Positions 7,775 to 27,550 are shown, counted from the stretch's first letter. The stretch is DNA of 32,000 nt from Halorhodospira halophila SL1 (GCF_000015585.1 NC_008789.1:1440001-1472000), one strand, 5' to 3'. Notes: generated by a model from the sequence alone, not told the origin. A program made the numbers and translations.

Positions 7775-7778
<4 letters not shown>
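6291..7778 (+). CDS. glrK: Sensor histidine kinase, GlrK/QseE-like (TM-periplasmic-TM-HAMP-HisKA-HATPase)
   Basis: The N-terminus MRRWP..., the ERAARRYATHNDPTAL segment, the H-box QRQRLLRHFSHELKTPLAAV and VKGSGLGLSLV all parallel E. coli GlrK as I recall it. ATGA overlaps occur at both ends (6291-6294 and 7775-7778). The symbol is assigned by similarity only. Confidence 0.82.
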
Positions 7779-9144
<1,366 letters not shown>

Positions 9145-9148
<4 letters not shown>

Positions 9149-10326
9149 ATCGCCTGGCCGACGGCCACGCCGGAGGACCACGCCCATTGGAAGTTGTGCC
9201 CGCCCAGCTGCCCGGTGACATCGACCACCTCGCCGACGAAATGCAACCCCGGCACCTCACGCGCCTCCAGGGTCCGGGACGACAGCGCGTCGGTGTCGAC
9301 CCCGCCGGCGGTCACCTCGGCCTTGGCGTAGCCCGCCGTACCGGCCGGGGTCAGCCGCCATTCCTGAAGCCGTTGCGCCACCGCCTCCAGGCCCCGGTTG
9401 CTGAACCCCTGCAATGGGCCGGACCACCCCTCCAGATCGCACAGCACCCGGGCGAGACGCCGCGGCAAGTGCGCCTCCAGGCAACGGTGCAAAGCCCGCT
9501 TGCTGCGCCTGCGCCGCGCCTCGGCAAGCTCGTCGTGCAGGGCGACACCCGGTAGCCAATCCAGGCTCAGCGGCACCTCGGGCTGCCAATAGCTAGAGGC
9601 CTGCAGTGCCGCCGGCCCACTCAGCCCGTGGTGGGTGATCAGCAGATCGTCGCTGAACTCAGCCTCGGCGCAGCGCACCCGGACCGGCACGCTGATGCCC
9701 GCCAGATCCCCGATCGGCCGGCGCAGGTGCTCCGGCAAAGTCAGCGGCACCAGCGCAGGGCGCGTGGGCTGCACCGGCAGACCGAACTGCCGGGCAATGG
9801 CGTATCCGAGGCCGCTGGCCCCCATCCGGGGGATCGACAGCCCGCCGGTAGCGACCACCAACGCCTCGGCGTGCAAGGTTCCGGTCGGGGTGGCGACGGC
9901 GAAACCCTCCGCCGTCGCCTGGACGCTGCGCACCCCGGTCCCCATGCGCAGTTCGACCCCGGCCTGGCGACCTTCGCTGAGCAGCAGGTCGAGGATGGGC
10001 CGGGCGGATTCGCGGCAGAATAGCCGTCCCGGCTCACGCTCCTCATAGGCAACGCCGTGGCGCTCCACGAGCTCCAGGAAGGCGGCCGGCGGATAACGTC
10101 GCAGCGCCGAGATGCAGAACCGCGGGTTGGCCGACAGGAAGTGCTCCGGCCCGCTGTGAAGGTGGGTGAAGTTGCACCGCCCACCTCCCGACATGAGGAT
10201 CTTGCGTCCGGGTTTGCGGGCGTGATCGAGCACCACCACCCGCCGGCCCCGCCCGGCGGCAGTGGCGGCACACATCAGCCCGGCCGCACCGGCGCCGATC
10301 ACGATCACATCGATCTGTTCCGTCAT
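9145..10326 (-). CDS. NAD(P)/FAD-dependent oxidoreductase of the HI0933/YhiN (BaiN-like) family
   Basis: True start is ATG 10326 (MTEQIDVIVIGAGAAGLMCA..., Rossmann GxGxxG), with AGGAG overlapping the helicase stop. KILMSGGGRCNFTH is the family signature, and the C-terminus has GLHFVGEVVDVTGQLGGHNFQWAWSSG. The tracked 466-aa version carries a spurious 73-aa extension. Confidence 0.85.
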
Positions 10327-10331
10327 CACTC

Positions 10332-12725
10332 CTACCGAATGTCGACAACGCGACTGGCTCGCTGGAAGCGCACCCGCCAGCCCGGCCAGGCGGGCAGTTC
10401 CCAACGCTTCGGATCCGTGCGGCGGATGCCGCCCACCTTCTCGGCCACCACCTCGCGGCGCCGCACATGGTAGTGGATGCGCAGATCGAGATCGGGGAGC
10501 TGGACCCGGCGGGGATAGCGTTCGTCGAAATCCGGCCGTTGCCACTCCGGCACCCCGGGGAAGCGCAGATCCTCGGGCTCAAGCAGTGTCAGGTCCTCGC
10601 CGCGCTCCACGCCCAGCCGCTCGAGCTGCTCCAGCAGCCACGCCCGTGCCTCGGGCACCGCCCCCTCCGCATACCCGAGGGCGACATAGAGGGACCACGC
10701 CTCCAGATCGTCCTGGAGCCGGCTACCCGCCGGCGCCAGCAGCTGGTCTTCGAGAATCAGCTCGGCCGCTGCCTCGCGCGCCGCGGCGCCCTCCGGCTCC
10801 ACCTCCTCGCTCCCGATGCAGCGCCCGGCAAACAACCACTCGCGCCGCGCCGTCAGCCGCTCCCCGGTCCATGCGGGCTCGCTGATTCCCTCGCTGCAGG
10901 CGCCGCTGGCAACGACCCATTGCAGCGGCATGGGGGCCAGGGCCGTAGCCAGGCTGATGGTCTGCCGGGTGCCCTTGCCGGGGACGCTGTGCGTGCCGAG
11001 GACCAGGGCCGCCTCGGCCTCCTCCGGAAACCAGGCGTGCTCGCCGAGCACCACCTCATCGCCGGCACCGTTGCCAAGCGCCTGCCGCCTGCGCCCGCGA
11101 CGCACATAGAGCCACGTCGGCATCGCCCGGGCGGCGGCGGTCAGGGCCCGCTCCATCCGCCCAGAGTCCAGACCCGGTACACCCTCGTTCATCGGCTCGG
11201 AAACCGGCCGGGGCCAAGCCGGTAGATCGAGGAGCTCACGCAGCTGACCCGCCAGCCGACGCCCCTCCTCCCGCACCCGCGTGTCGATCCGCACACCAGG
11301 CAGCCGCTCGCAGCGCAGCGCCGCCACGCGCAACCGGGCATCGCAGCGCTGCCCAAGCAACCCGGCCAGGGCCTCGCACTCGTCGCTATCGCCCCGAACC
11401 TGCAGCCAGCGATCCCCCGCCGCCAGCCCGGCCACCCAGTCGGCCATCAGCCCCCCCGTCTCGACATCGGGCATGGCCAGGACCAGGTGGGCCAGCTCCG
11501 GATCCACCGGCATGCGAAACAGCCGTTGGCCCCGCGTCGTGATCCGCCCGGAGGCATCCAGGGCACCCAGGCTCCGCAGCAGCCCCTCGGCCTGCTCCCG
11601 GCTCTCCTCGCGCGGCGTATCCACGAAGGGGAGCTCGGCGACCCGGTAGCCGGCACCGGCCGCAGCCAGCACCAGTTCAGTCAGATCCTCGCGCAACACT
11701 TCCGGGGGCGCGTGCTCGGGCAGCGGCGCCGCGTGCCCCCAGAGGCGGTAGCAGGTGCCGGGCTGCAGGCGGCCGGCACGCCCGGCCCGCTGCGCCGCAC
11801 TGGCTCGGGAGATGGGCTGCAGGGAAAGCACGGTCCGGCCGTTGCGGCGCAGGGTCCGGCGCTCCAGGCCACTATCCACCACGGCCGTCACCCCCGGCAC
11901 GGTCAGCGAGGTCTCGGCGATATTCGTGGCCAGCACCACACGCCGGGCCGAACCCGGCTCGAGGGCCCGGCGCTGCTCGGACAGTCGCACCCCGCCGTGG
12001 AGCCGAACCACCTCAGCCTCCACCCCGGAGAGACTGCGCCGCGCCTCCTCGATTTCAGCCTGCCCGGGCAGGAAAGCGAGGACGTCCCCGGCCGTCTCCG
12101 CCAGTGCGCGCCGCACCACTGCAGCCAATCGCTTGCCGAGGTCCTTGCGTTGCGGCATGGCCCGTGGCTGCTCGCCACAATGGCGTTCATCCACCGGGTA
12201 CCCGCGCCCCGGCGACTCCAGATACGTCCCGTCCAACGCGGCCGCGAGCCTTTCCCCCTCCAGGGTCGCCGAGGTGATCACCAGGCGCTGGCCCCCATCG
12301 GCGCGCAGCAACGCGAGGAGTAGGTCGGTGTCCCAGCGCCGCTCATGGAACTCGTCGAGGATCACCGTCTGGAACCCCGCCAATCGCCCCTCGGCCCGCC
12401 AGCGCAGGGCCACACCGGGGGTCACGAAGAGGACCCGGGTCCGCTCCGAGTAGCGGCGCTCCAGGCGGACGGCGTAACCGACCTCGTCCCCCGCTGCGGT
12501 ACCGCACTGCGCGGCCACGAAACCGGCCAGACTGGTGGCCGCCACACGGCGGGGCTGGACGACCAGCACCGGCCCGCCAGCGTCCGCCGCCCAGACCGGC
12601 AGTCGGGTAGACTTGCCGGAGCCGGTCGCGGCCGCCACCACGCAGTGGCCCTGCTCCAGCGCCCGGTGGAAGTCCGGCCGCAGTGAATCGATGGGCAGCG
12701 CTGTCCTTCCCCGTTCGTCACTCAT
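10332..12725 (-). CDS. hrpB: DEAH-box ATP-dependent helicase, HrpB-like (797 aa)
   Basis: Walker A AAATGSGKST, DEFHERR (DEAH box), SATL, TNIAETSLTVPGV and QRAGRAGR, followed by a long C-terminal region. Length and N-terminus (LPI..L.P.....L) resemble HrpB. The C-terminal domain is divergent, so the symbol is tentative. Confidence 0.8.
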   Translation of the reverse strand: MSDERGRTALPIDSLRPDFHRALEQGHCVVAAATGSGKSTRLPVWAADAGGPVLVVQPRRVAATSLAGFVAAQCGTAAGDEVGYAVRLERRYSERTRVLFVTPGVALRWRAEGRLAGFQTVILDEFHERRWDTDLLLALLRADGGQRLVITSATLEGERLAAALDGTYLESPGRGYPVDERHCGEQPRAMPQRKDLGKRLAAVVRRALAETAGDVLAFLPGQAEIEEARRSLSGVEAEVVRLHGGVRLSEQRRALEPGSARRVVLATNIAETSLTVPGVTAVVDSGLERRTLRRNGRTVLSLQPISRASAAQRAGRAGRLQPGTCYRLWGHAAPLPEHAPPEVLREDLTELVLAAAGAGYRVAELPFVDTPREESREQAEGLLRSLGALDASGRITTRGQRLFRMPVDPELAHLVLAMPDVETGGLMADWVAGLAAGDRWLQVRGDSDECEALAGLLGQRCDARLRVAALRCERLPGVRIDTRVREEGRRLAGQLRELLDLPAWPRPVSEPMNEGVPGLDSGRMERALTAAARAMPTWLYVRRGRRRQALGNGAGDEVVLGEHAWFPEEAEAALVLGTHSVPGKGTRQTISLATALAPMPLQWVVASGACSEGISEPAWTGERLTARREWLFAGRCIGSEEVEPEGAAAREAAAELILEDQLLAPAGSRLQDDLEAWSLYVALGYAEGAVPEARAWLLEQLERLGVERGEDLTLLEPEDLRFPGVPEWQRPDFDERYPRRVQLPDLDLRIHYHVRRREVVAEKVGGIRRTDPKRWELPAWPGWRVRFQRASRVVDIR

Positions 12726-12740
12726 CGCCCATCGACCGAA

Positions 12741-14195
12741 TCAGTCGCGCATGCCGCCCGTCCAGCACGGGTCGATGCTGGCCGCCGCATCGCGGTCCTC
12801 CGCCTCGCCGCGGTACCAGCCCAGGCGCGGGTGCAACTGCACCGTGGGACCGACCACCACCAGCGCCGGGCTCTCCACCCGTTCGGCGCGGACCCGTTCA
12901 GCCAGGGTCCGCAGATTGCCGAGGACCACGCGCTGCTGCGGCGTCGTCGCCTGGGCCACCACCGCAGCCGGATGCTCGGGCGGCAGCCCACACTCGCACA
13001 GTTGCTCGCACACCGCCTCGAGGTTGACCAGGCCCATGTAGATGATGAGTGTCTCGTCCTGGCGATAGGGCGCGTGGGCCTTCATCTGCGGGTGCCCGGC
13101 CCGCCGGTGACCGGTGAGCAGGCGACAGGTCTGGGCGTAATCCCGGTGGGTGAGCGGGATACCGGCATAGCTCGCCGCCCCCTGGGCGGCGCTGATGCCG
13201 GGCACCACCTGGAAGGGGATGTCCTGCTCGATCAGCCCCTCGATCTCCTCACCGCCGCGGCCGAAGAGGAATGGGTCACCGCCCTTGAGACGCAGGACCC
13301 GTTTACCGGCACGCGCCAATTCCACCAGCCGCTCGTTGATCCGCTCCTGCGGCAGTGTATGCCGACCGCGGCGCTTGCCCACGGGGATCCGCTCGGCCTC
13401 CTTGCGCACCAGATCCAGCAGGGCCGGCGCCGCCAGACGATCGTAGAGCACCACGTCAGCCCGCTGCATCAGGCGCAGCGCACGGAAGGTCAGTAGATCG
13501 GGGTCCCCGGGGCCAGCGCCGACCAGGAAGACCTCCCCCTGCGGGGCCGGCCGGGCCTGTTCCTGCTCGAGCAGGCGCAGCAGTTCGGCCTCCCCCTCGG
13601 CCTCGCGCCCTGCCAACACCGATTCCGCCGCCGCCCCATCGAAGATCTGCTCCCAGAACCGCAACCGCCAGTCCTTGTCCGGCAGCGCCACCCGCACCTG
13701 CTCCCGCATCCGTCCGGCCAGGCGTGCCAGCCGGCCGTAGGCCGCCGGCAGCAGTGTCTCTAGCCGACTGGCGATCTGCCTTGCCAGCACCGGCGCGGCG
13801 CCACCGCTGGAGACCGCCAGCTGCAGGGGCGAGCGATCCACCTGGACCGGGGTGATGTAGGTGCTCAGCGACGGCCGGCCGGCAACGTTGACGGGAATCC
13901 CCCGGGCACGACACGCCTCATAGACGGTACGGTCGGTGGCCTCATCGCCGCTGGCCCCCACCACCAGCGCCGCGCCCTCCTCCATACCCGCCGCGAACGG
14001 CTCGGCGCGGTGGTGGAGCTCGCCGGGGCTGGTATCCAGCAGTTGCTCGCAGGGCGCCGCCAGGACCGGCGCGATCAACTCCACCCGCGCGCCGGCCCGG
14101 AGCAGATCCCCGGCCCTGCGCGCAGCCGCCTCGCCGCCGCCCACAACCAGGCAGCGGCAACCGTGGAGCTTGAGGAAGATCGGGTAGTGGTGCAT
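12741..14195 (-). CDS. cysG: Siroheme synthase (precorrin-2 dehydrogenase/sirohydrochlorin ferrochelatase + uroporphyrinogen-III C-methyltransferase)
   Basis: N-terminal YPIFLKLHGCRCLVVGGGEAA (CysG-B Rossmann) and C-terminal SUMT domain VFLVGAGPGDPDLLT...RLKGGDPFLFGRGGEE...VPGISAA. 484 aa. Confidence 0.9.
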   Translation of the reverse strand: MHHYPIFLKLHGCRCLVVGGGEAAARRAGDLLRAGARVELIAPVLAAPCEQLLDTSPGELHHRAEPFAAGMEEGAALVVGASGDEATDRTVYEACRARGIPVNVAGRPSLSTYITPVQVDRSPLQLAVSSGGAAPVLARQIASRLETLLPAAYGRLARLAGRMREQVRVALPDKDWRLRFWEQIFDGAAAESVLAGREAEGEAELLRLLEQEQARPAPQGEVFLVGAGPGDPDLLTFRALRLMQRADVVLYDRLAAPALLDLVRKEAERIPVGKRRGRHTLPQERINERLVELARAGKRVLRLKGGDPFLFGRGGEEIEGLIEQDIPFQVVPGISAAQGAASYAGIPLTHRDYAQTCRLLTGHRRAGHPQMKAHAPYRQDETLIIYMGLVNLEAVCEQLCECGLPPEHPAAVVAQATTPQQRVVLGNLRTLAERVRAERVESPALVVVGPTVQLHPRLGWYRGEAEDRDAAASIDPCWTGGMRD

Positions 14196-14204
14196 GGGTT
14201 CAGT

Positions 14205-15512
14205 TCACCCCCCGGATGGGTCCATGGGTCGGTTCTTCCCCGTCACCCGCTGCAGGGACAAGAGCCCCCGGCCGCGGGCATCGACCAGCTCGAGGCTGCA
14301 GTGCTGGCAGGCGCCGGCCAGGGCCCACGCCCCGGCCACGCGCTGCCAGTGGAGTTCGACCCGGCCTCCGCCGGCGCCGAGGACCAGGGTCTCACCGTCG
14401 TAGTAGAGCCCGGCCCCCGCCACCGAGCAGACCATCCGCGTTCCGGCCGGCCCCGGCACCACGGCCCGGATTCGGGGCCACTCGCGGCACTCCTCAAGAT
14501 GGGCCGCCAGGTCCGAGACCTCAATCCGACTGGTCAGAAACGGGGTATCCGGCTCCGCTACGTCATCCGCCACGGCCGCCAGCGCCTCCGCCCAGTTGAC
14601 GTCGAAATGCGCCGCAGCGGCCTCCAGGCTCGGCGCCGGCTGTTCGCGCAACCATTGCCGCAGGACCACAGGCCATCCGTCCAGCCCCAGGCTAAGCGAT
14701 TGCCCGCGCTGCTCCCCCGACACGGGGGCACCGCCCTCGGCGTACTTGGCCGTATAACCCCGGGGGGTCACCATCAGCCCGTGCTCGCAGCGGGTCGAAC
14801 GGTTGCCGATGATCACCGTGCTGAGCATGCTCGGCTCGGCGCGATGGAGCTCCTCCAGGCACAGATGCTGGACCTGCTGCCGCTCCCGATAGGCCGACCG
14901 GACCACCGCCACTGGGGTTTGCGGGTCGCGGTAACGCAACAGGATCTCCTGCGCGCGGCCGATGTGCGCCTGCCGCCGCTTGCTCGCCGGGTTGTAGAGA
15001 ACCGTAACGAAATCCCCCCGCCCGGCGGCCTCGAGCCGGCGCACGATCACTGGCCAGGAGGTGAGCAGATCCGAGAGCGAGATGGTGCAGAAGTCGTGGG
15101 TCAGGGGCGCGCCGACCAGGGCGGCGCAGGTGGAGAGCGCCGAGGCCCCGGGGACCACCTCCACCTGCACCTCCCCGGCGCGGCCCTGCCAGCCGTGCTG
15201 AAGCAGAAACTCGTAGGTCGGCCCTGCCATGCCGTAGACCCCGGGGTCGCCCGAGGAGACCAGCGCCACAACCTGCCCGCCTCGGGCAGCCTCCCAGGCC
15301 GCCTCCACGCGATCGAGCTCTTCGGTCATGGCCTTGCCGATCACCGTCTTGCCTTCCAGCAGGTCCGGGATCAGTTTGAGGTACGTCTGGTAACCGATGA
15401 CCACCTCGGCCTCGGCGATCGCCTCGCGGGCCCGCGCCGTCATGTGCGCCGGGTCACCCGGGCCGATCCCTACCAGAAGGATCCGCCCCGGAGGGGGAAC
15501 ATCGCCTGTCAT
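14205..15512 (-). CDS. cbiH: Cobalt-factor III / precorrin-3B C17-methyltransferase (CbiH) fused to a ~175-aa C-terminal extra domain
   Basis: ATG at 15512 overlaps the upstream stop (ATGA). ILLVGIGPGDPAHMT..VVIGYQTYL...SSGDPGVYGMA...VVPGASA is a TP_methylase of CbiH type and ends near MVTPRGY (about aa 255). Residues ~260-435 are additional (see finding). Confidence 0.85.
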   Translation of the reverse strand: MTGDVPPPGRILLVGIGPGDPAHMTARAREAIAEAEVVIGYQTYLKLIPDLLEGKTVIGKAMTEELDRVEAAWEAARGGQVVALVSSGDPGVYGMAGPTYEFLLQHGWQGRAGEVQVEVVPGASALSTCAALVGAPLTHDFCTISLSDLLTSWPVIVRRLEAAGRGDFVTVLYNPASKRRQAHIGRAQEILLRYRDPQTPVAVVRSAYRERQQVQHLCLEELHRAEPSMLSTVIIGNRSTRCEHGLMVTPRGYTAKYAEGGAPVSGEQRGQSLSLGLDGWPVVLRQWLREQPAPSLEAAAAHFDVNWAEALAAVADDVAEPDTPFLTSRIEVSDLAAHLEECREWPRIRAVVPGPAGTRMVCSVAGAGLYYDGETLVLGAGGGRVELHWQRVAGAWALAGACQHCSLELVDARGRGLLSLQRVTGKNRPMDPSGG

Positions 15513-15907
15513 TCGTTCAGCCTCGCTATCGATACCGTGGCGTTGCGTCCGTCTTCGCCCCGCCAGCGGCGTTTCTCGATGATCAGATCGGCGCTGTCGG
15601 CATGGGCCCGACACAGCGCCGCCGCCTCGGCGACAGCTGGGGTCCCGGTATGGTGGCGCACGACCTCAGAGGGGTGCGGCACCGGGATCGCCGCCAGTTG
15701 CGTCGCCGGATAGAAAACCAGGGGCCAGCCATGGACCCGCGCCAGGGCGTGGAGCGCCGGCTCATCGCGCTTGAGGTCAATGCTGGCTAGCGCCACCACG
15801 TCGGCCGCACACAGCCCGGCCTCGGCCAAGGCGGCGGACACCGCGGCGGTCACAGTCTCGGTGGCCGTTCCGCGATCACAGCCGATCCCCACGACCACGC
15901 GCACCAT
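15509..15907 (-). CDS. cbiG: CbiG C-terminal domain protein (CobE-like), 132 aa
   Basis: VVVGIGCDRGT....V..AV..AL...GL....V..LASID.K.DE.AL..LA...GWPL.FY....L is the CbiG_C/CobE signature. The ATG at 15907 shares its A with the upstream TAA (TAATG). Confidence 0.75.
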   Translation of the reverse strand: MVRVVVGIGCDRGTATETVTAAVSAALAEAGLCAADVVALASIDLKRDEPALHALARVHGWPLVFYPATQLAAIPVPHPSEVVRHHTGTPAVAEAAALCRAHADSADLIIEKRRWRGEDGRNATVSIARLNE

Positions 15908-16647
15908 TACGACCCCGGATGCGCGGTTCGGTAGCGTACCAGCCGATCGCCCAGGCGCGCCTGCCAGTCCACCGAGGGCGCCTCATCCTTCACCCAGAGC
16001 ACGGCACTGTACGCCCGCGCATCCAGCGCCGCCGGGTCGTCGAGGCGGTACAGGTTGGGCGGCGGCGGTGTGGCCGGGCGCCAGGTATCGGCCTCCTCGA
16101 TCAGGGCCACCGGCTCGCCATTGAGCAGTGCTGCCGCCGCAGCCCGCAAGGCGGACGTGGACGCCACCACCTGCCAACCCTGTTCCTGGCCGAGCAGATC
16201 CACCGCTGGGAGCCCGCGGCGGTCCGAGGCCGTAGTGATGACCGGTGCGGCTCCGAGCTCCTCGGCGATCCGCTGCGTCCAGGCGTTGGCGCCACCCAGG
16301 TGACCGCCAAGCACCGCGACGACAAAACGTGCCGACTCATCCACGCTGACCACCCCGGGGTCGCGGGTCTTGTCGACCAGCAAAGGGGCCAGCAGACGCA
16401 CACACGCGCCCACCGAGCAGAAGCAGACGACCTGGCGCAGCGCCCCCGCGAAGCGCTCCGCCAGGGCGCTGCCCAGGGCCCCGGCCGCCACCGGGGTGCA
16501 ACGCCCCGAGTGATCGGCCAGCAACGGGGCAACACGCTCGGTGACCAGGATCTCGGCTTCGGGCCAGATCCCGGCCAGGCGGGCTGCGCTGGCCGCACCG
16601 CCGCGGGTCACCACCACCAGCAACACCCCTTCGCCCGTCTCCCTCAC
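15907..16647 (-). CDS. cbiG: CbiG N-terminal + middle domain protein (cobalt-precorrin-5A hydrolase part), 246 aa
   Basis: GTG at 16647 overlaps the cbiL stop (GTGA). The sequence VVVTRGGAASAARLA...LLVDKTRDPGVVSVDESARFVVAVLGGHLGGANAW...ITTASD resembles CbiG_N/CbiG_mid. It sits between cbiL and the CbiG_C ORF. Confidence 0.7.
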   Translation of the reverse strand: MRETGEGVLLVVVTRGGAASAARLAGIWPEAEILVTERVAPLLADHSGRCTPVAAGALGSALAERFAGALRQVVCFCSVGACVRLLAPLLVDKTRDPGVVSVDESARFVVAVLGGHLGGANAWTQRIAEELGAAPVITTASDRRGLPAVDLLGQEQGWQVVASTSALRAAAAALLNGEPVALIEEADTWRPATPPPPNLYRLDDPAALDARAYSAVLWVKDEAPSVDWQARLGDRLVRYRTAHPGS

Positions 16648-17396
16648 CCGGCTCCGGCTCCTTCGCTGCGCGAATCGGCGCGGCCCTTGCAAATCATCAG
16701 CAACGACAGATAGTGAACCGTCTCGCCGCGCAATCGGGCGATGTCGGTGACCACTCGCTCCTGCGGAGTCCCCACGCGCTCGACGAAGACGCTGGCGTCA
16801 CTCAACCCCTGCTCCTCGAGCAGGTCGATCACCTCTGCAAGCAGCGGTTTGACCTTGAGCAGCACCAGCGTATCGACCTCCGGCAGCAGCCGCTCCACGG
16901 TCTCCATGCCGTAGCCACCGGGCAGCACCGCCAAGGCATCGTCCTGGCTGGCCAGCGGCCAGCCGACCCGCGCCGGCGCTGCCAGAAAGGAGGCCACCCC
17001 GGGGATCGTCTCGACCTCAGCGCCGGGGGCCTCCGCGGTGACCGTGCGCGCCAAGTGGCCAAAGGTCGCGTACGTGGAGGCATCCCCCTCGACCAGGAAG
17101 GCGACGTCCTGCCCCTGGCCCAGAGTCGCCGCCACCGCCTTCGCCGCCTGCGCCCAATGCAACGCCAGGGTGGCCGGATCGCGGGTCATCGGAAAGACGA
17201 GGGGCATGGCGTCGGCCGGCGCCACCAATCCGCCCCGCTCGACAATCTCCAGGGCGTAGCTGGACTGCCCCTCGGCGCGCACCGGATAGGCCCAGCGCGC
17301 CTCCCCCTGGAGGACCTGCCAGGCCCGGCGGGTGATCCAGCCCGGGTCCCCGGGGCCGAGGGAAACCCCGATCAATCGCCCTGCCGACGTCGTCAT
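16644..17396 (-). CDS. cbiL: Cobalt-factor II / precorrin-2 C20-methyltransferase
   Basis: GRLIGVSLGPGDPGWITRRA......YP........SYAL.I, EGDASTYATFGHL and IPGVASF are typical of CbiL/CobI. ATGA overlap with cbiET at 17393-17396. Confidence 0.85.
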   Translation of the reverse strand: MTTSAGRLIGVSLGPGDPGWITRRAWQVLQGEARWAYPVRAEGQSSYALEIVERGGLVAPADAMPLVFPMTRDPATLALHWAQAAKAVAATLGQGQDVAFLVEGDASTYATFGHLARTVTAEAPGAEVETIPGVASFLAAPARVGWPLASQDDALAVLPGGYGMETVERLLPEVDTLVLLKVKPLLAEVIDLLEEQGLSDASVFVERVGTPQERVVTDIARLRGETVHYLSLLMICKGRADSRSEGAGAG

Positions 17397-18688
17397 GCGC
17401 TCTCCGTCTTGTTCGCCATGAGGATCCAGACCGGGTTCTCAGCACGGAACGTGCGCATCCCGGCCAGCTCACCGCTGCGATGGGCTTGCAGCTGGATGGC
17501 TTCCCAGTCCGCGACGCCGGCCGCCGCGGCAGCGTCGAGCCGGGCCGTGGCCTGGTGCAGATTCTCCAGGGTGACCAGGTTGATCACCAACCGCCCCGCC
17601 GGGCGCAGCCGCCGTAGGCAGAGGTCGATCAGTTCGCCCAGCGCCCCGCCCGAGCCACCGATGAAGACTGCATCCGGATCCAGCCAGGCGTCGAGCCCCT
17701 GCGGCGCCCGACCGTGGTGGAGGGTGACGTTGCCCACCCTGCGACGGCGCCGGTTCTCCTCGGCGATGGCCAGATCCTCGGCACGACGCTCCATCGCCCA
17801 GACATGCCCCCGGGGGCAGAGCCGCGCGGCCTCGAGAGCCACCGCACCGGAGCCGGTGCCGATATCCCAGACCCGGCTGTCCGGGGTCAGCGCCAGGCCG
17901 GCGAGCGTAACCGCGCGCACTTCCCGCTTGGTGATCAGACCGCGCTGGGGCCGACGCTGGGCGAACGCCTCGTCAACGCCCGCGAACGGCCAGTCCAGCG
18001 TCGCCCGTCGCCGCACCAGGGCGACATGGGGCTGCGGATAGTGGCGCGCCGCGGCGGTGCCAAGGGGGGCCGGCGGGTAGAGCGCCTCGTCCTCCCGGCC
18101 AATGCGGGCGACCGCTGCCACCTCCAGCTCGGTGTCGCGATACCCCACTGCCTGCAGCTGCCGGGCCAACCAGTCGGCACCGTTCTCGCCGGTGGTGTAG
18201 ACCGCCACCCGGTCGTGATCGGCCAGCGCGCGCAGCACGCCGCTGAGCGGATGCTCCGGCGCCGCCGTCTGCGCCGACCAGTCGCCAGCCACTGGGCCGT
18301 GGACCGAGGCGATGGCGGTCTGCGCCACGGGCCAACCGAGCCGGGCGCACGCCAACTGCACCAGGGACGGTGCCGGCAGGACCCGGCAGCGCTCGGCCCC
18401 GAGGTGGCTGGTGATCCGCTCACCGATGCCGTGGCAGAGCGGATCGCCACTGGCGAGGACCACCACGCGCTGCCCCTCGGCGGCCGCGGTCTCGATCCAG
18501 GCCGGCACCTCCGCCACGGCGCCGGTCAGGTCCCGGCGTTGTGCTCCGGGGGCCAGGGGGGCAAAGCCCTCGAGGACCCGGCGTCCGCCGATGAGCAGAT
18601 CGGCGCCGGCAATGGCCTCACGGGCCACCGGTGCCAGCCCGTCGGGACCGTCATCGAGCACACCGACGATGGTGCAGACCGGGGTCAC
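17393..18688 (-). CDS. cobL: Fused CbiE-CbiT (cobalt-precorrin-6B/7 C5,C15-methyltransferase, decarboxylating; CobL-type)
   Basis: GTG at 18688 overlaps the cbiC stop (GTGA). The N-terminal TP_methylase half has IVGVLDDGPDGL...ADLLIGGRR and LASGDPLCHGIG. The C-terminal CbiT half has ITKREVRAVTLAGL......VWDIGTGSGAVALEAA. The tracked 461-aa version has a spurious 30-aa extension. Confidence 0.85.
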   Translation of the reverse strand: MTPVCTIVGVLDDGPDGLAPVAREAIAGADLLIGGRRVLEGFAPLAPGAQRRDLTGAVAEVPAWIETAAAEGQRVVVLASGDPLCHGIGERITSHLGAERCRVLPAPSLVQLACARLGWPVAQTAIASVHGPVAGDWSAQTAAPEHPLSGVLRALADHDRVAVYTTGENGADWLARQLQAVGYRDTELEVAAVARIGREDEALYPPAPLGTAAARHYPQPHVALVRRRATLDWPFAGVDEAFAQRRPQRGLITKREVRAVTLAGLALTPDSRVWDIGTGSGAVALEAARLCPRGHVWAMERRAEDLAIAEENRRRRRVGNVTLHHGRAPQGLDAWLDPDAVFIGGSGGALGELIDLCLRRLRPAGRLVINLVTLENLHQATARLDAAAAAGVADWEAIQLQAHRSGELAGMRTFRAENPVWILMANKTESA

Positions 18689-19353
18689 CCGTCTCCCTCC
18701 TCGGCCAGGGCGAGCAGGGCGTGCAGACAGGCCACCACCGGCGGCGTCCCGCCCTTGCGCCCGGCGGTGGCGATCCACGGCACCTGCTGCTGCGCCATGG
18801 CCTCCTCGCTGGACTCTGCGGCAGCGACAAACCCGACCGGCATGGCGATCAGCAATCGCGGCGCCACCACGCCACCGTGGATCCGCTCAAGGACTGCTCG
18901 CAGCGCCGTCGGGGCATTACCCACGGCTACGATGGCGCCATCGAGCCACCCCTGCTCGGCGGCCAGGGCAACCGCCTGCTCAGCTCGGGTGGTCCCCGCC
19001 TGCTGGGCCCGCTCCGCCGCCCGCGGGTCCGCCATCAGGCAGTGCGCCTCGATCCCGAAGTGCCCCAGCCGCGCGGCGGACAGACCGACACGGATCATCT
19101 CCACGTCGACGAAGACCGGCGCCCCGGCGCGGATGGCCTCCATCCCCGCGGTCACAGCACGGGGATGGAAGCGGGTCACGCCATTGAAGTCGAAATCCGC
19201 CGTGGCGTGGATCATGCGCCGGACCACCGCCCACTGCGCCGCGTCGTAGGCACTGCGATCCCCGGCCTCGGCGTCGACGCGGGCGAAGGAGCACGCCTCG
19301 ATCTGGCGCCCGGAGGCGGTCTGCTGCTCGGTCACGGACGGCTCGCGAGACAT
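18685..19353 (-). CDS. cbiC: Cobalt-precorrin-8 methylmutase
   Basis: The motifs VVRRMIHATADFDF....RFHP.AV.AG..AI..GAP.FVDVEM...G, VGNAPTAL and GGTPPV(V)A are characteristic of CbiC/CobH. Confidence 0.9.
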   Translation of the reverse strand: MSREPSVTEQQTASGRQIEACSFARVDAEAGDRSAYDAAQWAVVRRMIHATADFDFNGVTRFHPRAVTAGMEAIRAGAPVFVDVEMIRVGLSAARLGHFGIEAHCLMADPRAAERAQQAGTTRAEQAVALAAEQGWLDGAIVAVGNAPTALRAVLERIHGGVVAPRLLIAMPVGFVAAAESSEEAMAQQQVPWIATAGRKGGTPPVVACLHALLALAEEGDG

Positions 19354-19365
19354 CCTCGCACCTCT

Positions 19366-20190
19366 TCAGTGGTGGTGGTGATGGTGGTGGTGCGCGGCCG
19401 CCGCGCGGTGCGGGCAGCCGTCGCACTCGAGCATCGCCTGTCCCGCACGCGCCTCCTCCACCCGCTGGGCGATCAGTGCGAAGACCTCCGGTTCAAAACC
19501 GAGGTAATCCGCCAGGGCGAACGCCGTCTGCGGGTACTGAACCCGCAGACGCGCCACCTGCTGCTCAATACGCTCGATCAGCCGCCCGGTGAACAGGTAA
19601 TACGGCAGGACCACCTGCTGCGTCATGCCCAACAGGGAGTGACGCCGCACCACGGCCTCCAGGCGGGGGTGGGTGACGCCGGTGAAGGCGATATCGACCA
19701 GTTCGTGCTCGCCGCCCTCGTAGAGCCAGCGGCCCAGCCGCGCCAACTCCCCGTTGGCCGTACGATCCGAGGATCCGCGACCCAGCAGGATCACCCCGGT
19801 GGTCCGCGGATCGGGCACACTCAGGGCCTGCATGGCGTCACGCAGGCGGCGCTCGACCAGGCCCAGCGTCGTTTCACTCACGCCCAGATGGCGCGCCAGA
19901 CGGAAATCGACCCCCGGGTGCCGGGCACGGGCAGCCTCGATCTGCTCGGGCACCTCGAGCTTCACGTGCCCGGCGGCGTTAAGGATCAGTGGGACCGCGA
20001 TGACCCGATCCGCCCGCGCCGCGGCCCGATCCAGCCCCTCGCCAAGCAGCGGATCCGCGAACTCGATGAAACAGGTCTCCAGCAGCCAATCCGGGTAGTG
20101 CTCGGCCAGCAGGTCGGCGAACCGGCGGATCTCCTCGTTGCCGTCCTCCTGGCGCGAGCCATGCCCAATCAACAGGATACAGTCAGTCAT
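19366..20190 (-). CDS. cbiX: Sirohydrochlorin cobaltochelatase, long form (CbiX-L) with Cys motif and His8 tail
   Basis: Duplicated CbiX fold: ILLIGHGSR....NEE...FA and ILLGRGSSD..ANGE. The C-terminus MLECDGCPHRAAAAHHHHHHHH resembles the MxCxxC + poly-His tail known from Bacillus megaterium CbiX. Confidence 0.85.
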   Translation of the reverse strand: MTDCILLIGHGSRQEDGNEEIRRFADLLAEHYPDWLLETCFIEFADPLLGEGLDRAAARADRVIAVPLILNAAGHVKLEVPEQIEAARARHPGVDFRLARHLGVSETTLGLVERRLRDAMQALSVPDPRTTGVILLGRGSSDRTANGELARLGRWLYEGGEHELVDIAFTGVTHPRLEAVVRRHSLLGMTQQVVLPYYLFTGRLIERIEQQVARLRVQYPQTAFALADYLGFEPEVFALIAQRVEEARAGQAMLECDGCPHRAAAAHHHHHHHH

Positions 20191-20202
20191 GCATGTCGTT
20201 CC

Positions 20203-20982
20203 TCAATTTTCGCGGCGGCGGAAACGGTGGCCGAAACCGGGGTCGTAAAGCCGTGAGCGCGCCGCCGGTGCCGCCTCCCGCGCCCCGAGCGTCGGACCGA
20301 CCAGGATCATGGTCTGGCTGTTGAGCCCCGCCGCGCGGCAGTCCGCGGCCAGGTCGCGGATGCAGGTACGCAGGACCTGTTCGACCCCGGGCCAGGAGGC
20401 GCGGTGGACCACCACCACCGGGGCGTCGTCGTCCCAGCCGCCACCGCGCAGGGCATCGGCCAGGCGTTCCAGGAGGGTGATCGACAGGTAGACACACAGG
20501 GTGCTGCCGTGCCGCGCCAGATCGGCAAGCTGTTCCCCCGCCGGCATCGGGGTGCGCCCCTCCACCCGGGTGAAGATCACCGTCTGCGTGCCCTCCGGCA
20601 GGGTCAGGCTCTCGCCGGCCGCCGCCGCCGCGGCCATGGCCGACGTGACCCCGGGAACCAGATGGACTGGGATCCCCGCGGCGTCCAGCGGGCGCACGAT
20701 CTCCACGAAGGCCCCGTATAGCCCCGGATCACCGGGTTGAAGGCGGACCACACAGCCCCCGGCGCGGGCGCGCTCGAGCAGCCAGTCCTGGATCTGTTCC
20801 AAGGTCATCCCTTTGGAGTCGGCGACCTCGCAGTGCGCCGGCGCCCAGTCGAGCACCTCGGCCGGCACCAGCGAACCGGCGTAGAGCACGGCGTCCGCCG
20901 CAGCCACCCGATCCCGCCCGCGAACCGTGATTAGATCGGCCGCCCCGGGACCGGCCCCCACAAACCAGACCTCCCCCTTCAT
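20203..20982 (-). CDS. cbiF: Cobalt-precorrin-4 C11-methyltransferase
   Basis: ATG at 20982 overlaps the ABC ATPase stop (ATGA). VWFVGAGPGAADLITVRG......ADAVLYAGSLVP, RLQPGDPGLYGA and VPGVTS fit CbiF/CobM. The tracked 338-aa version has a spurious Arg/Gly-rich extension. Confidence 0.9.
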   Translation of the reverse strand: MKGEVWFVGAGPGAADLITVRGRDRVAAADAVLYAGSLVPAEVLDWAPAHCEVADSKGMTLEQIQDWLLERARAGGCVVRLQPGDPGLYGAFVEIVRPLDAAGIPVHLVPGVTSAMAAAAAAGESLTLPEGTQTVIFTRVEGRTPMPAGEQLADLARHGSTLCVYLSITLLERLADALRGGGWDDDAPVVVVHRASWPGVEQVLRTCIRDLAADCRAAGLNSQTMILVGPTLGAREAAPAARSRLYDPGFGHRFRRREN

Positions 20983-21767
20983 CCGCGTCCCCTCTCTTGC
21001 AACTGGTAACCGGCCACAAACGGTGCCCGCTGATGCTCGACGACGTGAACGTCCACGTCGTAGGCGGCACGCAGAGTCGGCGTGTCGATGACGGCCTGCG
21101 GCGGGCCGTCGGCCATCACCCGGCCGTCGCGCAGGAGCACGATGCGGTCGGCCAGCTGTACGGCGATGTTGATATCGTGGAGCACCACCAGCACCCCCTG
21201 CCCCTGCTCCCGCGCACACTCGGTGAGGATCTCGATGGCGTCGCGCTTGTGCTTCATGTCCAGGTGGTTGGTCGGCTCATCGAGGAGCAGGAAGGGGGTC
21301 TGGCGAACCAGAGCCCGGGCGATGGCCGCCTTCTGCCGCTGCCCGCCGCTGATCTCGGTCAGCGGTGACTGGGCCAGGTCGGCCATGCCCAGACGCTGGA
21401 GCACCGCCTCGGCACGGGCAAGATCGGCCGGGTCGTGACGCCAACTCGCCCGGCGCAGGCCAAGCAACACGCTCTCAAGTACGGTCAGCGGGTAGACGGC
21501 ATCGGTGGTCTGCGCGACGTAGGAGAGCGAGCGGGCGATGCGGGCCTGGCGCTGCCCCTTCACGGGCTCACCGGCGATGGTGATGTGCCCGTGGCGCGGC
21601 CGCAGGATGCCGGTGATGCACTTGAGCAGGGTGCTCTTGCCGGAGCCGTTGGGCCCGATCAGGGCCACCACCTCGCCGGCGGCTACGCGGGTATCCACGC
21701 CCTGCAAGACCTCGCTGCGCCGATAGGCGTAGCGAACACCTCGTAGTTCGATGGCCGGACGGGTCAC
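20979..21767 (-). CDS. ABC importer ATP-binding protein (FepC/BtuD family)
   Basis: Walker A GPNGSGKSTLL, signature ISGGQRQKAAIARAL, Walker B LLLDEPTNHLD and H-loop VLHDIN. The GTG start at 21767 overlaps the permease stop (GTGA). Confidence 0.9.
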   Translation of the reverse strand: MTRPAIELRGVRYAYRRSEVLQGVDTRVAAGEVVALIGPNGSGKSTLLKCITGILRPRHGHITIAGEPVKGQRQARIARSLSYVAQTTDAVYPLTVLESVLLGLRRASWRHDPADLARAEAVLQRLGMADLAQSPLTEISGGQRQKAAIARALVRQTPFLLLDEPTNHLDMKHKRDAIEILTECAREQGQGVLVVLHDINIAVQLADRIVLLRDGRVMADGPPQAVIDTPTLRAAYDVDVHVVEHQRAPFVAGYQLQERGRG

Positions 21768-22855
21768 GGTCCCGACCCTCCTTCGCGGCGACGCAGGATC
21801 AGGTAGATGAACAGCGGCGAGCCGATGAAGGCCGTCACCACACCCACCGGCAGCACCACCGAAGCGAAGGCGTGCAACGACACCAAGTCGGCCAGGGCCA
21901 GCAGCAGTGCGCCGATCAGCGCTGCAGCCGGGATCAGGAAACGGTGATCCGAACCGATCAGGAGCCGGGCCAGATGGGGCGCCACCAGCCCCAGGAAGCC
22001 GATCCCACCGGTGAAGGCGACGGTCACCGCCACGAGAAGCGCCACCAGGAACATCAGTCCGATGCGCAGGCGCCCGACGGCAATCCCCAGGCTAGTGGCG
22101 GTTTCATCACCGAGCAGTAGTCGGTTCAGGTCGCCACTCTTCCACAGGAAGACCGGCAGCGTGACCGTCAACGCCACCGTGATGAACACGAAGCTCTCCC
22201 AGTCGGCACGGCTGAGGCTGCCCACGCTCCAGAACATGACCTCCCGGGTGGCATCGGCGTCGGCGAAGTAGATCAGCAGCGTCGTGGTGGCCCCGAAGAA
22301 GTACATCAGGGCGATCCCCGCGAGGATCAGGCTCATCGGCGTCGCCCCCTTCCACTGCCCGATGAGCAGGATGAGCAGCGACACCGCCATCGCAAAGAGG
22401 AAGGCATTGCCGACGATGCCGTAGACGCCGAAGGCCGAGAACCCGAAGATGATCGCCAGCGCCGCCCCCAGCGAGGCGCCGGAGGCGATCCCCAGGGTGA
22501 ACGGTGAGGCCATCGGATTGCGCAGCAGGCTCTGCAGGATCACCCCACCGAGCGCCAGCCCCATGCCGGCCACGACGGCGGTGGCCAGGCGCGGCAGGCG
22601 GATGTTCCAGACCACGTTCTCGGTCTGCGCGCTGACCCACGACGCCCCCAGCGGCCGACCCAGCACCGCCTGCACCACCTCGCTCAGCGGGATCCCCATG
22701 GGGCCGAGTCCCAGGCCAAGAACGAACGTCGCCACCAGGGCCGCAGCCAGGCCCAAAAGGATCAGGGTCTTCCACCAGATCGCCCGCGCGTAATCATCGA
22801 GCAGCCCGCCGGGAGGCGCTGGCCGGGAGGCGCTATCGGCGGTCAACTCAGTCAT
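21764..22855 (-). CDS. FecCD/BtuC-family ABC importer permease
   Basis: ATG at 22855 (MTELTADS...) overlaps the 3' end of the binding-protein gene by 8 nt. About 9-10 hydrophobic helices, with RLPR...AG..LA..G...Q...RNP.A.P...G and a C-terminal PVGVVTA.IG.P.F..L typical of FecCD. Confidence 0.85.
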   Translation of the reverse strand: MTELTADSASRPAPPGGLLDDYARAIWWKTLILLGLAAALVATFVLGLGLGPMGIPLSEVVQAVLGRPLGASWVSAQTENVVWNIRLPRLATAVVAGMGLALGGVILQSLLRNPMASPFTLGIASGASLGAALAIIFGFSAFGVYGIVGNAFLFAMAVSLLILLIGQWKGATPMSLILAGIALMYFFGATTTLLIYFADADATREVMFWSVGSLSRADWESFVFITVALTVTLPVFLWKSGDLNRLLLGDETATSLGIAVGRLRIGLMFLVALLVAVTVAFTGGIGFLGLVAPHLARLLIGSDHRFLIPAAALIGALLLALADLVSLHAFASVVLPVGVVTAFIGSPLFIYLILRRREGGSGP

Positions 22856-23963
22856 CGTCCAGGCTGCTGAGCTCCTGGAGCCGATCGTACAGCCCGGGGT
22901 CGCCGTAGAAGACCTCCAGGATCTCCTCACCGCGATCCCGGAGATCGACGTCGGCCATAGCCTCCGGGTAGAGCACCCGGGCCATGTGCACCAGGTCGAT
23001 CAGCCCGGTGGCCAGATCCCACCCCATGTAGGTGCCCTTGAAGCGGTGGATGCGTTCCGCCTCGACGGCCTTTACCCCGGAGAGCCGTTCATCATCCAGG
23101 ACCTCGTCACGGGCGACGCGGCTGGCCCGGGACGGGGTGTGGAGGAAGATGTGCGCCGGATCCCAGCTCACCAGCTCCTCGGCGCTGACCTCGCCGTCAC
23201 CACCGGGCCGACCAGCGGTCACCAGCTCGGCACCCAGCTGCTCGACGGGAAAGTAGAAGGAGACGTGGTTGTAGAGGTTGCGCCGGTGGGCCAGGTAGAT
23301 CCGTGGCGGTTCCTCGTCGGCGACCTGCTCCTGCACCTCGGAGACCGTCGCATCGTAGAAATCGAGCAGTTCTTCCGCCCGCTCTTCGCGACCGGTCACG
23401 GTGCCGAGCAGCCGATAGGCCTGCTCGATCTGCGCCTCAATGGCCTCCTCGGAGGCCCGCTCGCGGCCCAGGGTATTCACCGCGACCACGGGGACGCCGA
23501 GCTGCTGCTGGTAGCGCTCGGCCTGCTCGGCCATCGCCTCGTCGTCGTCGCCGCGGCTGAAGGCCCAGTAGATGAACAGATCCGGATCGGTGGCGAGCAC
23601 CCGCTCGGCGCTGAACTCCGACCCGGGCTGGCCGCCGCCGACCATGGCCACCTCGTCCAGGCGACCGAAGGCGCGGACTTCGATCGGCTTGGCCTCGGAA
23701 AAGCGCGAGCCGAACATGTCGCTGGGGATTCCGACCAGGCGATCCTCGACACCCAGGTGCAGCGCCATGCGGAAGGCATCGACATTGACCGTGGCGATCC
23801 GCTCCGCCGCCTCCGGAACTTCCACGCTGCGGCCGAGCATATCCTCGACCTCATGGGTATCCTGCGCGGGCCCATCGCGGCTTTCGTCGTTGGGGGTATC
23901 TCCGCACCCGCCGAGGATCAAACCGATCCCCGCGACGAGCGCGATGCACGGATGACGCTGCAT
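22848..23963 (-). CDS. Periplasmic substrate-binding lipoprotein of the iron-complex/cobalamin ABC importer class
   Basis: ATG at 23963 is preceded by GGAGGAG. Lipoprotein signal MQRHPCIALVAGIGLILGGCGD. It is the first gene after the cobalamin riboswitch and directly precedes the FecCD permease. Its body resembles class III binding proteins (PDLFIYW..., VVAVN). The ligand is inferred only from context. Confidence 0.78.
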   Translation of the reverse strand: MQRHPCIALVAGIGLILGGCGDTPNDESRDGPAQDTHEVEDMLGRSVEVPEAAERIATVNVDAFRMALHLGVEDRLVGIPSDMFGSRFSEAKPIEVRAFGRLDEVAMVGGGQPGSEFSAERVLATDPDLFIYWAFSRGDDDEAMAEQAERYQQQLGVPVVAVNTLGRERASEEAIEAQIEQAYRLLGTVTGREERAEELLDFYDATVSEVQEQVADEEPPRIYLAHRRNLYNHVSFYFPVEQLGAELVTAGRPGGDGEVSAEELVSWDPAHIFLHTPSRASRVARDEVLDDERLSGVKAVEAERIHRFKGTYMGWDLATGLIDLVHMARVLYPEAMADVDLRDRGEEILEVFYGDPGLYDRLQELSSLDDD

Positions 23964-24084
23964 GGCTCCTCCAGTCACTGGATCCGGGTACGCCATGCGG
24001 GGGGGCGGGTCGGAAACGGGCGCGCCGGGGCGCGGATGCAACGACCGTCACCGCCACGCACGGTTCCCCGCCGTGTGGCTGCGG

Positions 24085-24290
24085 CCCCCAGGCCGGTCTC
24101 CGGGCTTGCGAGCGGGGCCCCAGCCCCAAGCGCCGCGCCTTCCCGCACCGGGTGCCGGGGACACCGTGGATGCAGTGGCGATGCAGCGCCCGCACTCGCC
24201 TACCGTTGCGGGGACAGCGCCGGACTTGCCTGCGCCCGCGCAGGGCACAGTGCGCACCGACTTCCCGACCGTCCGCGGTGGCGCCGCACG
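24085..24290 (-). promoter_or_regulatory. Cobalamin (B12) riboswitch
   Basis: Read on the minus strand: GGTCGGGAAGTCGGTGCGCA (24251-24270), TCCCCGCAACGGTAGG (24199-24214), GCCACTG (24173-24179) and GGGAAGGCG (about 24135-24144). The B12 box AAGCCCGGAGACCGGCC (24091-24107) matches the consensus AGYCMGGAGACCKGCC. It lies in the 5' leader of the uptake/cbi gene string, about 127 nt before the ATG at 23963. Confidence 0.88.
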
Positions 24291-24353
24291 GGCCTTACAC
24301 CGAACGGACGGCCCCGGCATGGATCCAACTGCCGGGTCACCTGGGGAGGCTGG

Positions 24354-24383
24354 ACTCTACGGGCGGGCGCTGCCGCCTGTCAA
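24354..24383 (-). promoter_or_regulatory. Sigma70-type promoter candidate driving the riboswitch and cbi string
   Basis: The minus strand reads TTGACA (24378-24383), an 18-nt spacer, then TAGAGT (24354-24359). This is about 55-60 nt upstream of the riboswitch core. Sequence match only. Confidence 0.45.
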
Positions 24384-24498
24384 CGCGGCGGGGCGACGAG
24401 GTCAATAGCCACGGACCGCCCCCTTGTGGCAGGATTCCCAAGTGCGCGTTAAGGGTATGGACGCCCGCGACCCCTCCCGACCCCCCGCCGGAGATGTC

Positions 24499-25674: not shown

Positions 25675-25675
25675 G

Positions 25676-26239: not shown

Positions 26240-26349
26240 TGCACCTCCACGCAGCCTCGGACGACTCGGCGAGTATCACCCCTTGAACGCCGGAGTATAC
26301 CCGCGTATTCCTTGATAGAATGCCTCGACACGGTAGCGAGTCAGAGACC

Positions 26350-27519: not shown

Positions 27520-27550
27520 GCTGCCCTGACGCTGCCGCGACGGAGACCGA

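Follow-up and report, generated by a model that had tools for sequence, protein, structure and literature searches.

Cobalamin riboswitches ahead of corrinoid genes have been described in a number of bacteria. In Desulfovibrio, one B12-element precedes cbiK-cbiL plus btuCDF (Rodionov et al. 2004, PMC545781), and in Geobacter a large locus with nearly the full set of adenosylcobalamin (Ado-CBL) synthesis genes is controlled by riboswitches (PMC545781). Bacillus megaterium possesses a 15-gene operon, cbiWHXJCDETLFGA-cysG-cbiY-btuR (PMC8123684), and a review mentions that the cbi operon of this species was cloned without its cobalamin riboswitch (PMC5282855). The Salmonella cob operon is preceded by a B12-regulated leader (cited in PMC5282855), and the E. 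coli btuB and the env8 riboswitches exert translational control via an L5-L13 kissing loop (PMC5282855, PMC4285132). All five corrinoid operons of Dehalobacter restrictus are headed by riboswitches and are corrinoid-responsive (PMC4285132). Genes under cobalamin-riboswitch control routinely span synthesis, B12 transporters, and cobalt transporters (PMC3766115). In this study, a putative cobalamin riboswitch and the 14 minus-strand genes behind it were analyzed in Halorhodospira halophila SL1, a purple sulfur gammaproteobacterium. The window, that is the whole stretch of DNA analyzed, comprises 32,000 nucleotides (nt); its BtuF-like product is 100% identical to an H. halophila protein, and its G+C content varies between 65 and 74%, with 70% for the genome.

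The layout of this locus is ordinary and well precedented; the locus itself had not been described before. A preliminary description had regarded the reach of the riboswitch as unusually long and the placing of import and synthesis under one switch as notable; both views are contradicted by published cases, with precedents in Desulfovibrio, Geobacter, B. megaterium, and Dehalobacter. The reading that we favor, with a probability of roughly 0.7, is that the riboswitch leads a polycistronic mRNA for corrinoid uptake, corrin synthesis, and siroheme/precorrin-2 synthesis, and that it would act by a translational block with coupling or polarity.

Promoter, riboswitch, and expression platform

The leader was aligned in four sequences: the window, Halorhodospira sp. 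9622 (L007), a metagenomic locus in which btuFCD is absent (L015), and a stand-alone btuFCD locus (L010). Its parts in the window are as follows.

24378-24383, minus strand: -35 hexamer TTGACA, invariant in the four related leaders, where the spacer diverges
24354-24359, minus strand: -10 hexamer TAGAGT after an 18-nt spacer; the same hexamers in L007 and L015, TAGGGT in L010
24086-24346, minus strand: cobalamin riboswitch aptamer, bounded by helix P1 (24346-24339 paired with 24093-24086)
24053-24079, minus strand: P13-like regulatory hairpin with the loop CGGGGAA and two compensatory double changes in the stem
23973-24050, minus strand: C-rich, G-poor spacer (C/G = 1.59), at the 95th-99th percentile of 78-nt windows along the transcript
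23960-23998, minus strand: hairpin GCAUGGC ... GCCAUGC, predicted by minimum-free-energy and constrained folds

The cobalamin riboswitch proposed in the preliminary description was recovered as a match to Rfam RF00174 at 24267-24094 (minus strand), a local match to model positions 45-169 that scores 49.1 bits (gathering score 31.5; E = 1.5e-9). With the covariance-model scan and helix P1 taken together, the earlier 3′ boundary (24085) proved right, and the earlier 5′ boundary (24290) fell about 55 nt short. P1 forms all of its eight pairs in every one of the only four sequences available (100%), and two compensatory double changes were seen. For P1 and P13 together, 100% of cells are paired with four compensatory double changes in total, compared with just 17-48% of cells in register controls slid by 1-3 columns. 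The core motifs GGGAA, GGUGC, GCCACUG, CGGGAAGGC, and AGCCCGGAGACC, including the B12 box, align to the consensus with high posterior probability and are invariant among the four relatives; conservation of the aptamer exceeds that of its flanks in all four lineages. No second riboswitch was found within the string at E <= 1.

The proposed promoter, TTGACA-18-TAGAGT, was confirmed on the minus strand at 24383-24354 and is the sole sigma-70-like match on both strands between 8500 and 25500. A single match is not significant by itself (the shuffle mean is 0.5); the call is supported by its location and its conservation. Between the end of the -10 hexamer and helix P1 lie 7 nt, and transcription would be expected to start at about 24347, on the opening base of P1 or no more than a few bases away.

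The loop of P13 is complementary to UCCCCGG (24163-24157) in the terminal loop of the long aptamer arm, and the CCCC/GGGG match is present in three of the four sequences; a loop-loop pairing between P13 and the aptamer is predicted on this basis. In L015 (approximately 1395-1420), the aptamer loop UCCCCGG is replaced by UCGAGGG with the P13 loop CGGGGAA unchanged, and the presumed kissing complementarity is lost there. The btuF start codon lies about 90 nt from P13, and the predicted hairpin at 23998-23960 encloses both the Shine-Dalgarno sequence GGAGGAG (23972-23966) and the btuF ATG (23963-23961). No intrinsic terminator, i.e., no hairpin with a following U-tract, was detected in the platform, and translational block on btuF is therefore the predicted mode of repression. 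One candidate intrinsic terminator, a small G+C hairpin with CCCGUUUCC behind it (about 24034-24012), was dismissed: a longer predicted stem takes in the U-run, and there is no U-tract after it. The C-rich spacer (24050-23973) is a possible Rho loading site, and btuF itself contains a stronger C-rich stretch (C/G 2.27).

According to the proposed mechanism, RNA synthesis would start from the sigma-70-type promoter at or near P1, and the riboswitch would form the 5′ leader of a polycistronic mRNA carrying genes for btuFCD-like uptake, for cobalt insertion and the corrin ring (cbi), and for siroheme/precorrin-2 synthesis (cysG). Binding of cobalamin would stabilize the aptamer and the P13 hairpin, and the primary effect would be a block of btuF translation initiation, the Shine-Dalgarno sequence and AUG lying in a predicted hairpin. 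A translational-block mode is described for proteobacterial B12 leaders in the passages of two papers that cite Nahvi 2004 and Vitreschak 2003 (PMC4285132, PMC5282855). From there repression could spread downstream in two ways: translational coupling would fail where stop and start codons overlap, and Rho-dependent polarity could set in along the C-rich leader and the btuF RNA, both left untranslated. With increasing distance the repression would probably fade.

The gene string, its relatives, and the proposed reach of control

All 14 minus-strand open reading frames (ORFs) of the preliminary description received family assignments, and the 13 junctions were exactly as it had given them (-8, -4, -4, +12, +12, -4, -4, -4, -1, -4, +9, +15, and +5 nt from btuF onward). 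No junction exceeds 15 nt, and eight are stop/start overlaps, so the same strand and short or overlapping junctions are kept throughout, as expected of a single unit. An independent gene call on a public contig gave the same product lengths for the 11 complete genes that it covers (btuD to the flavoprotein gene). The genes, with product lengths in amino acids (aa), are listed in order of transcription.

22848-23963, minus strand: btuF-like substrate-binding lipoprotein, 371 aa (Pfam Peripla_BP_2)
21764-22855, minus strand: btuC-like FecCD permease, 363 aa; 8-nt overlap with btuF
20979-21767, minus strand: btuD-like ABC ATPase, 262 aa; GTGA overlap
20203-20982, minus strand: cbiF, precorrin-4 C11-methyltransferase, 259 aa (TIGR01465, 309 bits, above cutoff); ATGA overlap
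19366-20190, minus strand: cbiX, two-domain cobaltochelatase, 274 aa (Pfam CbiX, two matched stretches); 12-nt gap
18685-19353, minus strand: cbiC, precorrin-8 methylmutase, 222 aa; 12-nt gap
17393-18688, minus strand: cbiE-cbiT fusion, 431 aa (TIGR02467 and TIGR02469, both above cutoffs); GTGA overlap
16644-17396, minus strand: cbiL, C20-methyltransferase, 250 aa (TIGR01467, 223 bits); ATGA overlap
15907-16647, minus strand: N-terminal and middle domains of cbiG as a gene of their own, 246 aa (Pfam CbiG_N, CbiG_mid); GTGA overlap
15509-15907, minus strand: C-terminal domain of cbiG as its own gene, 132 aa (Pfam CbiG_C); TAATG junction
14205-15512, minus strand: cbiH, C17-methyltransferase for ring contraction, 435 aa, of which about 160 aa at the C terminus form a ChuX/HemS-like domain (TIGR01466, 309 bits); ATGA overlap
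12741-14195, minus strand: cysG, siroheme synthase, 484 aa (NF007922, 579 bits against a cutoff of 400); 9-nt gap
10332-12725, minus strand: HrpB-like DEAH helicase, 797 aa, an apparent passenger; 15-nt gap
9145-10326, minus strand: flavoprotein of the HI0933/aminoacetone-oxidase family, 393 aa (TIGR00275, 387 bits); 5-nt gap

The importer trio is complete, with a Peripla_BP_2 binding protein, a FecCD permease, and an ABC ATPase. Curated cutoffs were not reached by the BtuC model (229 bits against 334), although it is the best NCBIfam match of the permease, or by the BtuD model (138 against 281), and no BtuF model matched; assignment of the trio as BtuFCD-like corrinoid importer, including its substrate specificity, is based on context. 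The anaerobic (early cobalt insertion) set is represented by cbiX, cbiL, cbiH, cbiG, cbiF, cbiE, cbiT, and cbiC, and curated cutoffs were exceeded by the CbiF, CbiL, CbiH, CbiE, and CbiT models. The ring pathway in the window is incomplete: no Pfam or NCBIfam match to CbiD or CbiJ was found among the scanned window ORFs, and these genes must be located elsewhere in the genome or be replaced. In H. halochloris, cbiJ was found close to the btu genes. The split of cbiG (15509-16647, minus strand, TAATG junction) is kept in L001, L003, L007, L008, and L015; in H. halochloris CbiG_C is instead joined to CbiH, in a 629-aa CbiG_C-CbiH-ChuX-like protein (L004 5194-7083).

Gene order and tight junctions are kept in L003 (a metagenome-assembled genome, MAG, of the Ectothiorhodospiraceae), L007, L008 (also a MAG locus), and L015, with marker proteins 71-87% identical. 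The conserved stretch runs from cbiF to the flavoprotein gene in L003 and L015 and from cbiF to cysG in L007 and L008; btuFCD is variable. Halorhodospira sp. 9622 (L007) has the same riboswitch-btuFCD-cbi-cysG order, with an 11-nt overlap of btuD and cbiF, and L003 keeps the order from btuD to the flavoprotein gene as well as the same convergent neighbor. In L008, btuB-btuFCD is followed by a 68-nt gap and then by cbiF...cysG. A btuB-like receptor gene was found upstream in L004, L006, L008, and L011.

The strongest evidence for a link between leader and cbi genes comes from L015. In this locus TTGACA-17-TAGAGT and a riboswitch (49.1 bits) stand directly ahead of cbiF...cysG-helicase-flavoprotein, and btuFCD is absent; the leader is 79% identical to that of the window across the aptamer and P13. 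Searches for btuFCD remnants between the L015 riboswitch and cbiF by blastn and blastx gave noise only. The region (L015 1210-1791) contains a 53-codon ORF that starts where btuF has its Shine-Dalgarno sequence and ATG, ends in a GTGA overlap with cbiF, and shows no detectable homology, which suggests a translational relay. This arrangement ties the leader to the cbi string and not to the transporter alone. To judge from these gene orders, the leader belongs in the H. halophila clade with the cbi string, and the presence of the transporter module varies.

The string does not end with cysG, its twelfth gene. The two genes that come after it differ from the rest in that neither is a recognizable B12 gene. 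The helicase belongs to a family that is large in Gammaproteobacteria (7769 hits), and its orthologs are found in unrelated contexts in H. halochloris and Alkalilimnicola ehrlichii (L013, L014), in the latter directly after tex. Only in the H. halophila clade does the helicase gene follow cysG and precede the flavoprotein gene; the cysG-helicase-flavoprotein junctions there remain tight, at +9 and +2 nt (L003) or -1 and +6 nt (L015). Both genes look like passengers, so that the functional unit would consist of 12 genes plus two passengers; they were presumably added in the H. halophila lineage and are probably transcribed via read-through. HrpB/HrpA models match only residues 10-435, approximately, of the helicase (10332-12725). 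The C-terminal portion of about 360 residues has no family match, and full-length relatives (47-60% identical) are labeled merely 'helicase-related protein.'

It had been suggested that a single leader may gate uptake, synthesis, and cysG. The anatomy behind this suggestion was right, and a riboswitch-headed polycistronic unit is the likeliest interpretation; one part that did not hold up concerns the two tail genes, which are not recognizable as B12 genes. The single unit is inferred from junction geometry, conserved synteny, and the arrangement in L015, and single-transcript control is plausible on these grounds. The absence of convincing internal terminators had also been put forward. Terminator-like sites within the string are indeed few and weak (two, at 15738-15722 and 22420-22403, against 3.6 expected from shuffles). 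In the whole 32-kb window such sites do not exceed the shuffle expectation, and only one further promoter-like site was detected.

Several observations weigh against control of the entire string by the leader. At 70% G+C the scans lack discriminating power; they miss the promoters and terminators of the window's many other units, so missing internal signals carry almost no weight. Full-leader and platform-alone folds were no stabler than shuffles (z = +0.8 and +1.4), and constrained folds mimicking the ligand-bound and ligand-free states left the accessibility of the Shine-Dalgarno sequence and AUG unchanged. The 68-nt btuD-cbiF gap of L008 could accommodate a promoter. In the more distant relatives L006, L010, L011, and L012, riboswitch-(btuB)-btuFCD is self-contained, with a riboswitch above the gathering score upstream of btuFCD. 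No cobalamin riboswitch was detectable upstream of the cbiF-X-L-G-(G_C-H) string of H. halochloris (L004), and riboswitch control of cbi genes is thus not universal in the group. A sulfur-oxidizing phototroph is expected to need siroheme; repression of cysG by B12 would cut its supply, which argues for some B12-independent expression. Finally, no transcriptome or cobalamin-regulation study of H. halophila was found in the literature. In H. halochloris, a riboswitch of 30.9 bits, just below the gathering score of 31.5, lies ahead of btuB-btuFCD and downstream of the cbi string, and standard annotation would miss it; the upstream regions concerned are L004 1520-1832 and 7145-7330.

Three other explanations have to be set against these data. 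It is conceivable that the riboswitch gates the transporter genes only, and that transcription of cbi and cysG relies chiefly on at least one internal promoter within btuD or later coding sequence, so that B12 would have little influence on synthesis. The independent riboswitch-(btuB)-btuFCD modules of L006, L010, L011, and L012, the H. halochloris cbi string with no detectable riboswitch, the gap in L008, and the promoters overlooked by the scans would all agree with such an arrangement. We nevertheless regard it as quite unlikely, because L015 has promoter and riboswitch directly before cbiF with the transporter genes absent, because btuD and cbiF overlap both in H. halophila (ATGA) and in L007 (by 11 nt), with no intergenic DNA between them, and because published cbi operons are often riboswitch-controlled (PMC545781, PMC3766115). 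More serious, yet still the minority view, is a division into at least two units, in which the riboswitch unit ends at cysG and the helicase and flavoprotein genes are transcribed, insensitive to B12, from a promoter of their own that lies within the 3′ end of cysG. Neither tail gene belongs to a known B12 family, the helicase is widespread in Gammaproteobacteria and occupies unrelated contexts in H. halochloris and Alkalilimnicola, its start lacks a clear Shine-Dalgarno sequence, and its 15-nt gap is the largest of the string. Against this stand the tight cysG-helicase-flavoprotein junctions conserved in L003 and L015 and the lack of a terminator-like site between cysG and the helicase gene; moreover, a separate promoter would not block read-through from upstream.

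A degenerate aptamer, a relic that does not bind cobalamin and is followed by a string expressed constitutively from the promoter, would explain why the match is local, why it scores only 49 bits compared with 87-114 bits for riboswitches of Ectothiorhodospira-type loci, and why large insertions break the consensus. The score is, however, well above the gathering threshold, the core motifs (including GCCACUG and AGCCCGGAGACC) are intact, P1 and P13 are upheld by compensatory changes, and the aptamer has diverged less than its flanks in the four lineages, which makes a relic most improbable. A riboswitch at the head of a polycistronic mRNA thus remains the preferred explanation. A broader proposal, in which the conserved promoter-riboswitch-P13 cassette of the H. 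halophila lineage heads exchangeable cargo (btuFCD, btuFCD plus cbi, or cbi behind the 53-codon relay ORF) and its control reaches cysG, the helicase, and the flavoprotein, is put forward tentatively, and we consider it rather doubtful as a whole.

If the favored reading is true, one RNA sensor would shut down both uptake and the costly synthesis of the ring when corrinoid is plentiful. Such one-sensor shutdown is already textbook knowledge for other bacteria, and the value of the result lies mostly in annotation. The relatives do, however, form a natural series in which the same leader occurs with btuFCD, without btuFCD, and with btuB upstream, and which lends itself to the question of whether coupling or Rho polarity carries the control of a translational riboswitch along a long operon. 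With cysG and two genes of unrelated function placed behind the switch, cross-talk of B12 with siroheme or RNA metabolism is predicted and can be tested. Should control reach the tail, B12 status would set the level of siroheme synthase, and thereby influence sulfur and nitrogen redox enzymes, and would also set that of an RNA-remodeling enzyme.

The CbiH extension and neighboring genes

The C-terminal part of CbiH, about 160 residues encoded at 14208-14690 (minus strand), is a rare domain with a predicted tetrapyrrole-binding fold of the ChuX/HutX/HemS type. It has no direct sequence match in Pfam or PDB, and a word-indexed protein search with this domain gave no matches. An exhaustive search of 1.84 billion representative proteins revealed only 11 relatives, some fused to CbiH or CbiG_C and others stand-alone proteins of the ChuX/HutX/HemS family. 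A profile built from these relatives matches HemS and ChuS in PDB, and the AlphaFold model of the extension (predicted local distance difference test, pLDDT, 88) gave template-modeling (TM) values of 0.63-0.70 against ChuX, HutX, and HemS. The extension may hold or pass on cobalt-precorrin intermediates. Searches of the literature revealed no paper that connects CbiH to HemS or ChuX. Among the by-products of this work, the union of a tetrapyrrole-binding domain with the ring-contraction methyltransferase is the most interesting.

At the end of the string, the stop codon of the flavoprotein gene overlaps that of a convergent sigma-54 activator gene (7670-9148, plus strand) at 9145-9148, which leaves no room for a terminator on either strand. 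Each of these convergent units must transcribe antisense into the other unless it is halted within coding sequence (9145-9148). Divergent from the riboswitch promoter lie cyclic-di-GMP genes (24424-28789, plus strand) encoding a GAF-HD-GYP protein, a second HD-GYP protein, and a GGDEF protein; this neighborhood is also kept in Halorhodospira sp. 9622. A repeat search across the string gave chance-level matches only. Elsewhere in the window, a 130-aa ORF (3165-3557, plus strand) encodes a paralog of photoactive yellow protein (PYP), with 173 bits and E = 3e-50 against PDB PYP entries. The paralog (3165-3557) is not identical to the classical PYP, and its gene is found between those of an AsmA-family protein and a thioredoxin-like lipoprotein.

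Comparison with known systems

The Desulfovibrio and Geobacter loci resemble that of H. halophila in having one cobalamin riboswitch before corrin synthesis and a BtuCDF-type importer, or before a large synthesis locus. All use the anaerobic (cbi) pathway, and all, including the H. halophila locus, are comparative-genomic predictions. They differ in gene content and order, with the cbiK chelatase there and the two-domain CbiX here, and the Desulfovibrio and Geobacter loci are without the cysG, helicase, or flavoprotein tail.

The B. megaterium operon is similar in its length of about 15 genes, in the anaerobic pathway that it encodes, in a cysG-type gene, and in a reported cobalamin riboswitch. 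It belongs to a Gram-positive bacterium, contains cbiD, cbiJ, and cbiA, which are not in the H. halophila string, and lacks btuFCD; its platform is presumably of the transcription-terminator type. The cob operon of Salmonella enterica (cbiA to cobT) covers about 17 kb and about 20 genes. Like the H. halophila string, it is found in a gammaproteobacterium, has a single B12-sensing leader, and includes a transporter (cbiMNQO, for cobalt); it is controlled, as proposed for H. halophila, at the translation of its first gene with downstream consequences. In contrast, its promoter depends on PocR/propanediol, the uptake system is for cobalt and not for corrinoids, and the late pathway steps are covered too.

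With respect to the leader itself, the btuB and env8 riboswitches are the closest counterparts. They share with H. halophila a P13-type hairpin after the aptamer, a loop complementary to an aptamer loop, the lack of an intrinsic terminator, and a Shine-Dalgarno sequence that lies, by prediction in H. halophila, in nearby secondary structure. The difference is one of spacing: in H. halophila the Shine-Dalgarno sequence lies about 80 nt past P13, with an extra hairpin and the C-rich spacer in between.

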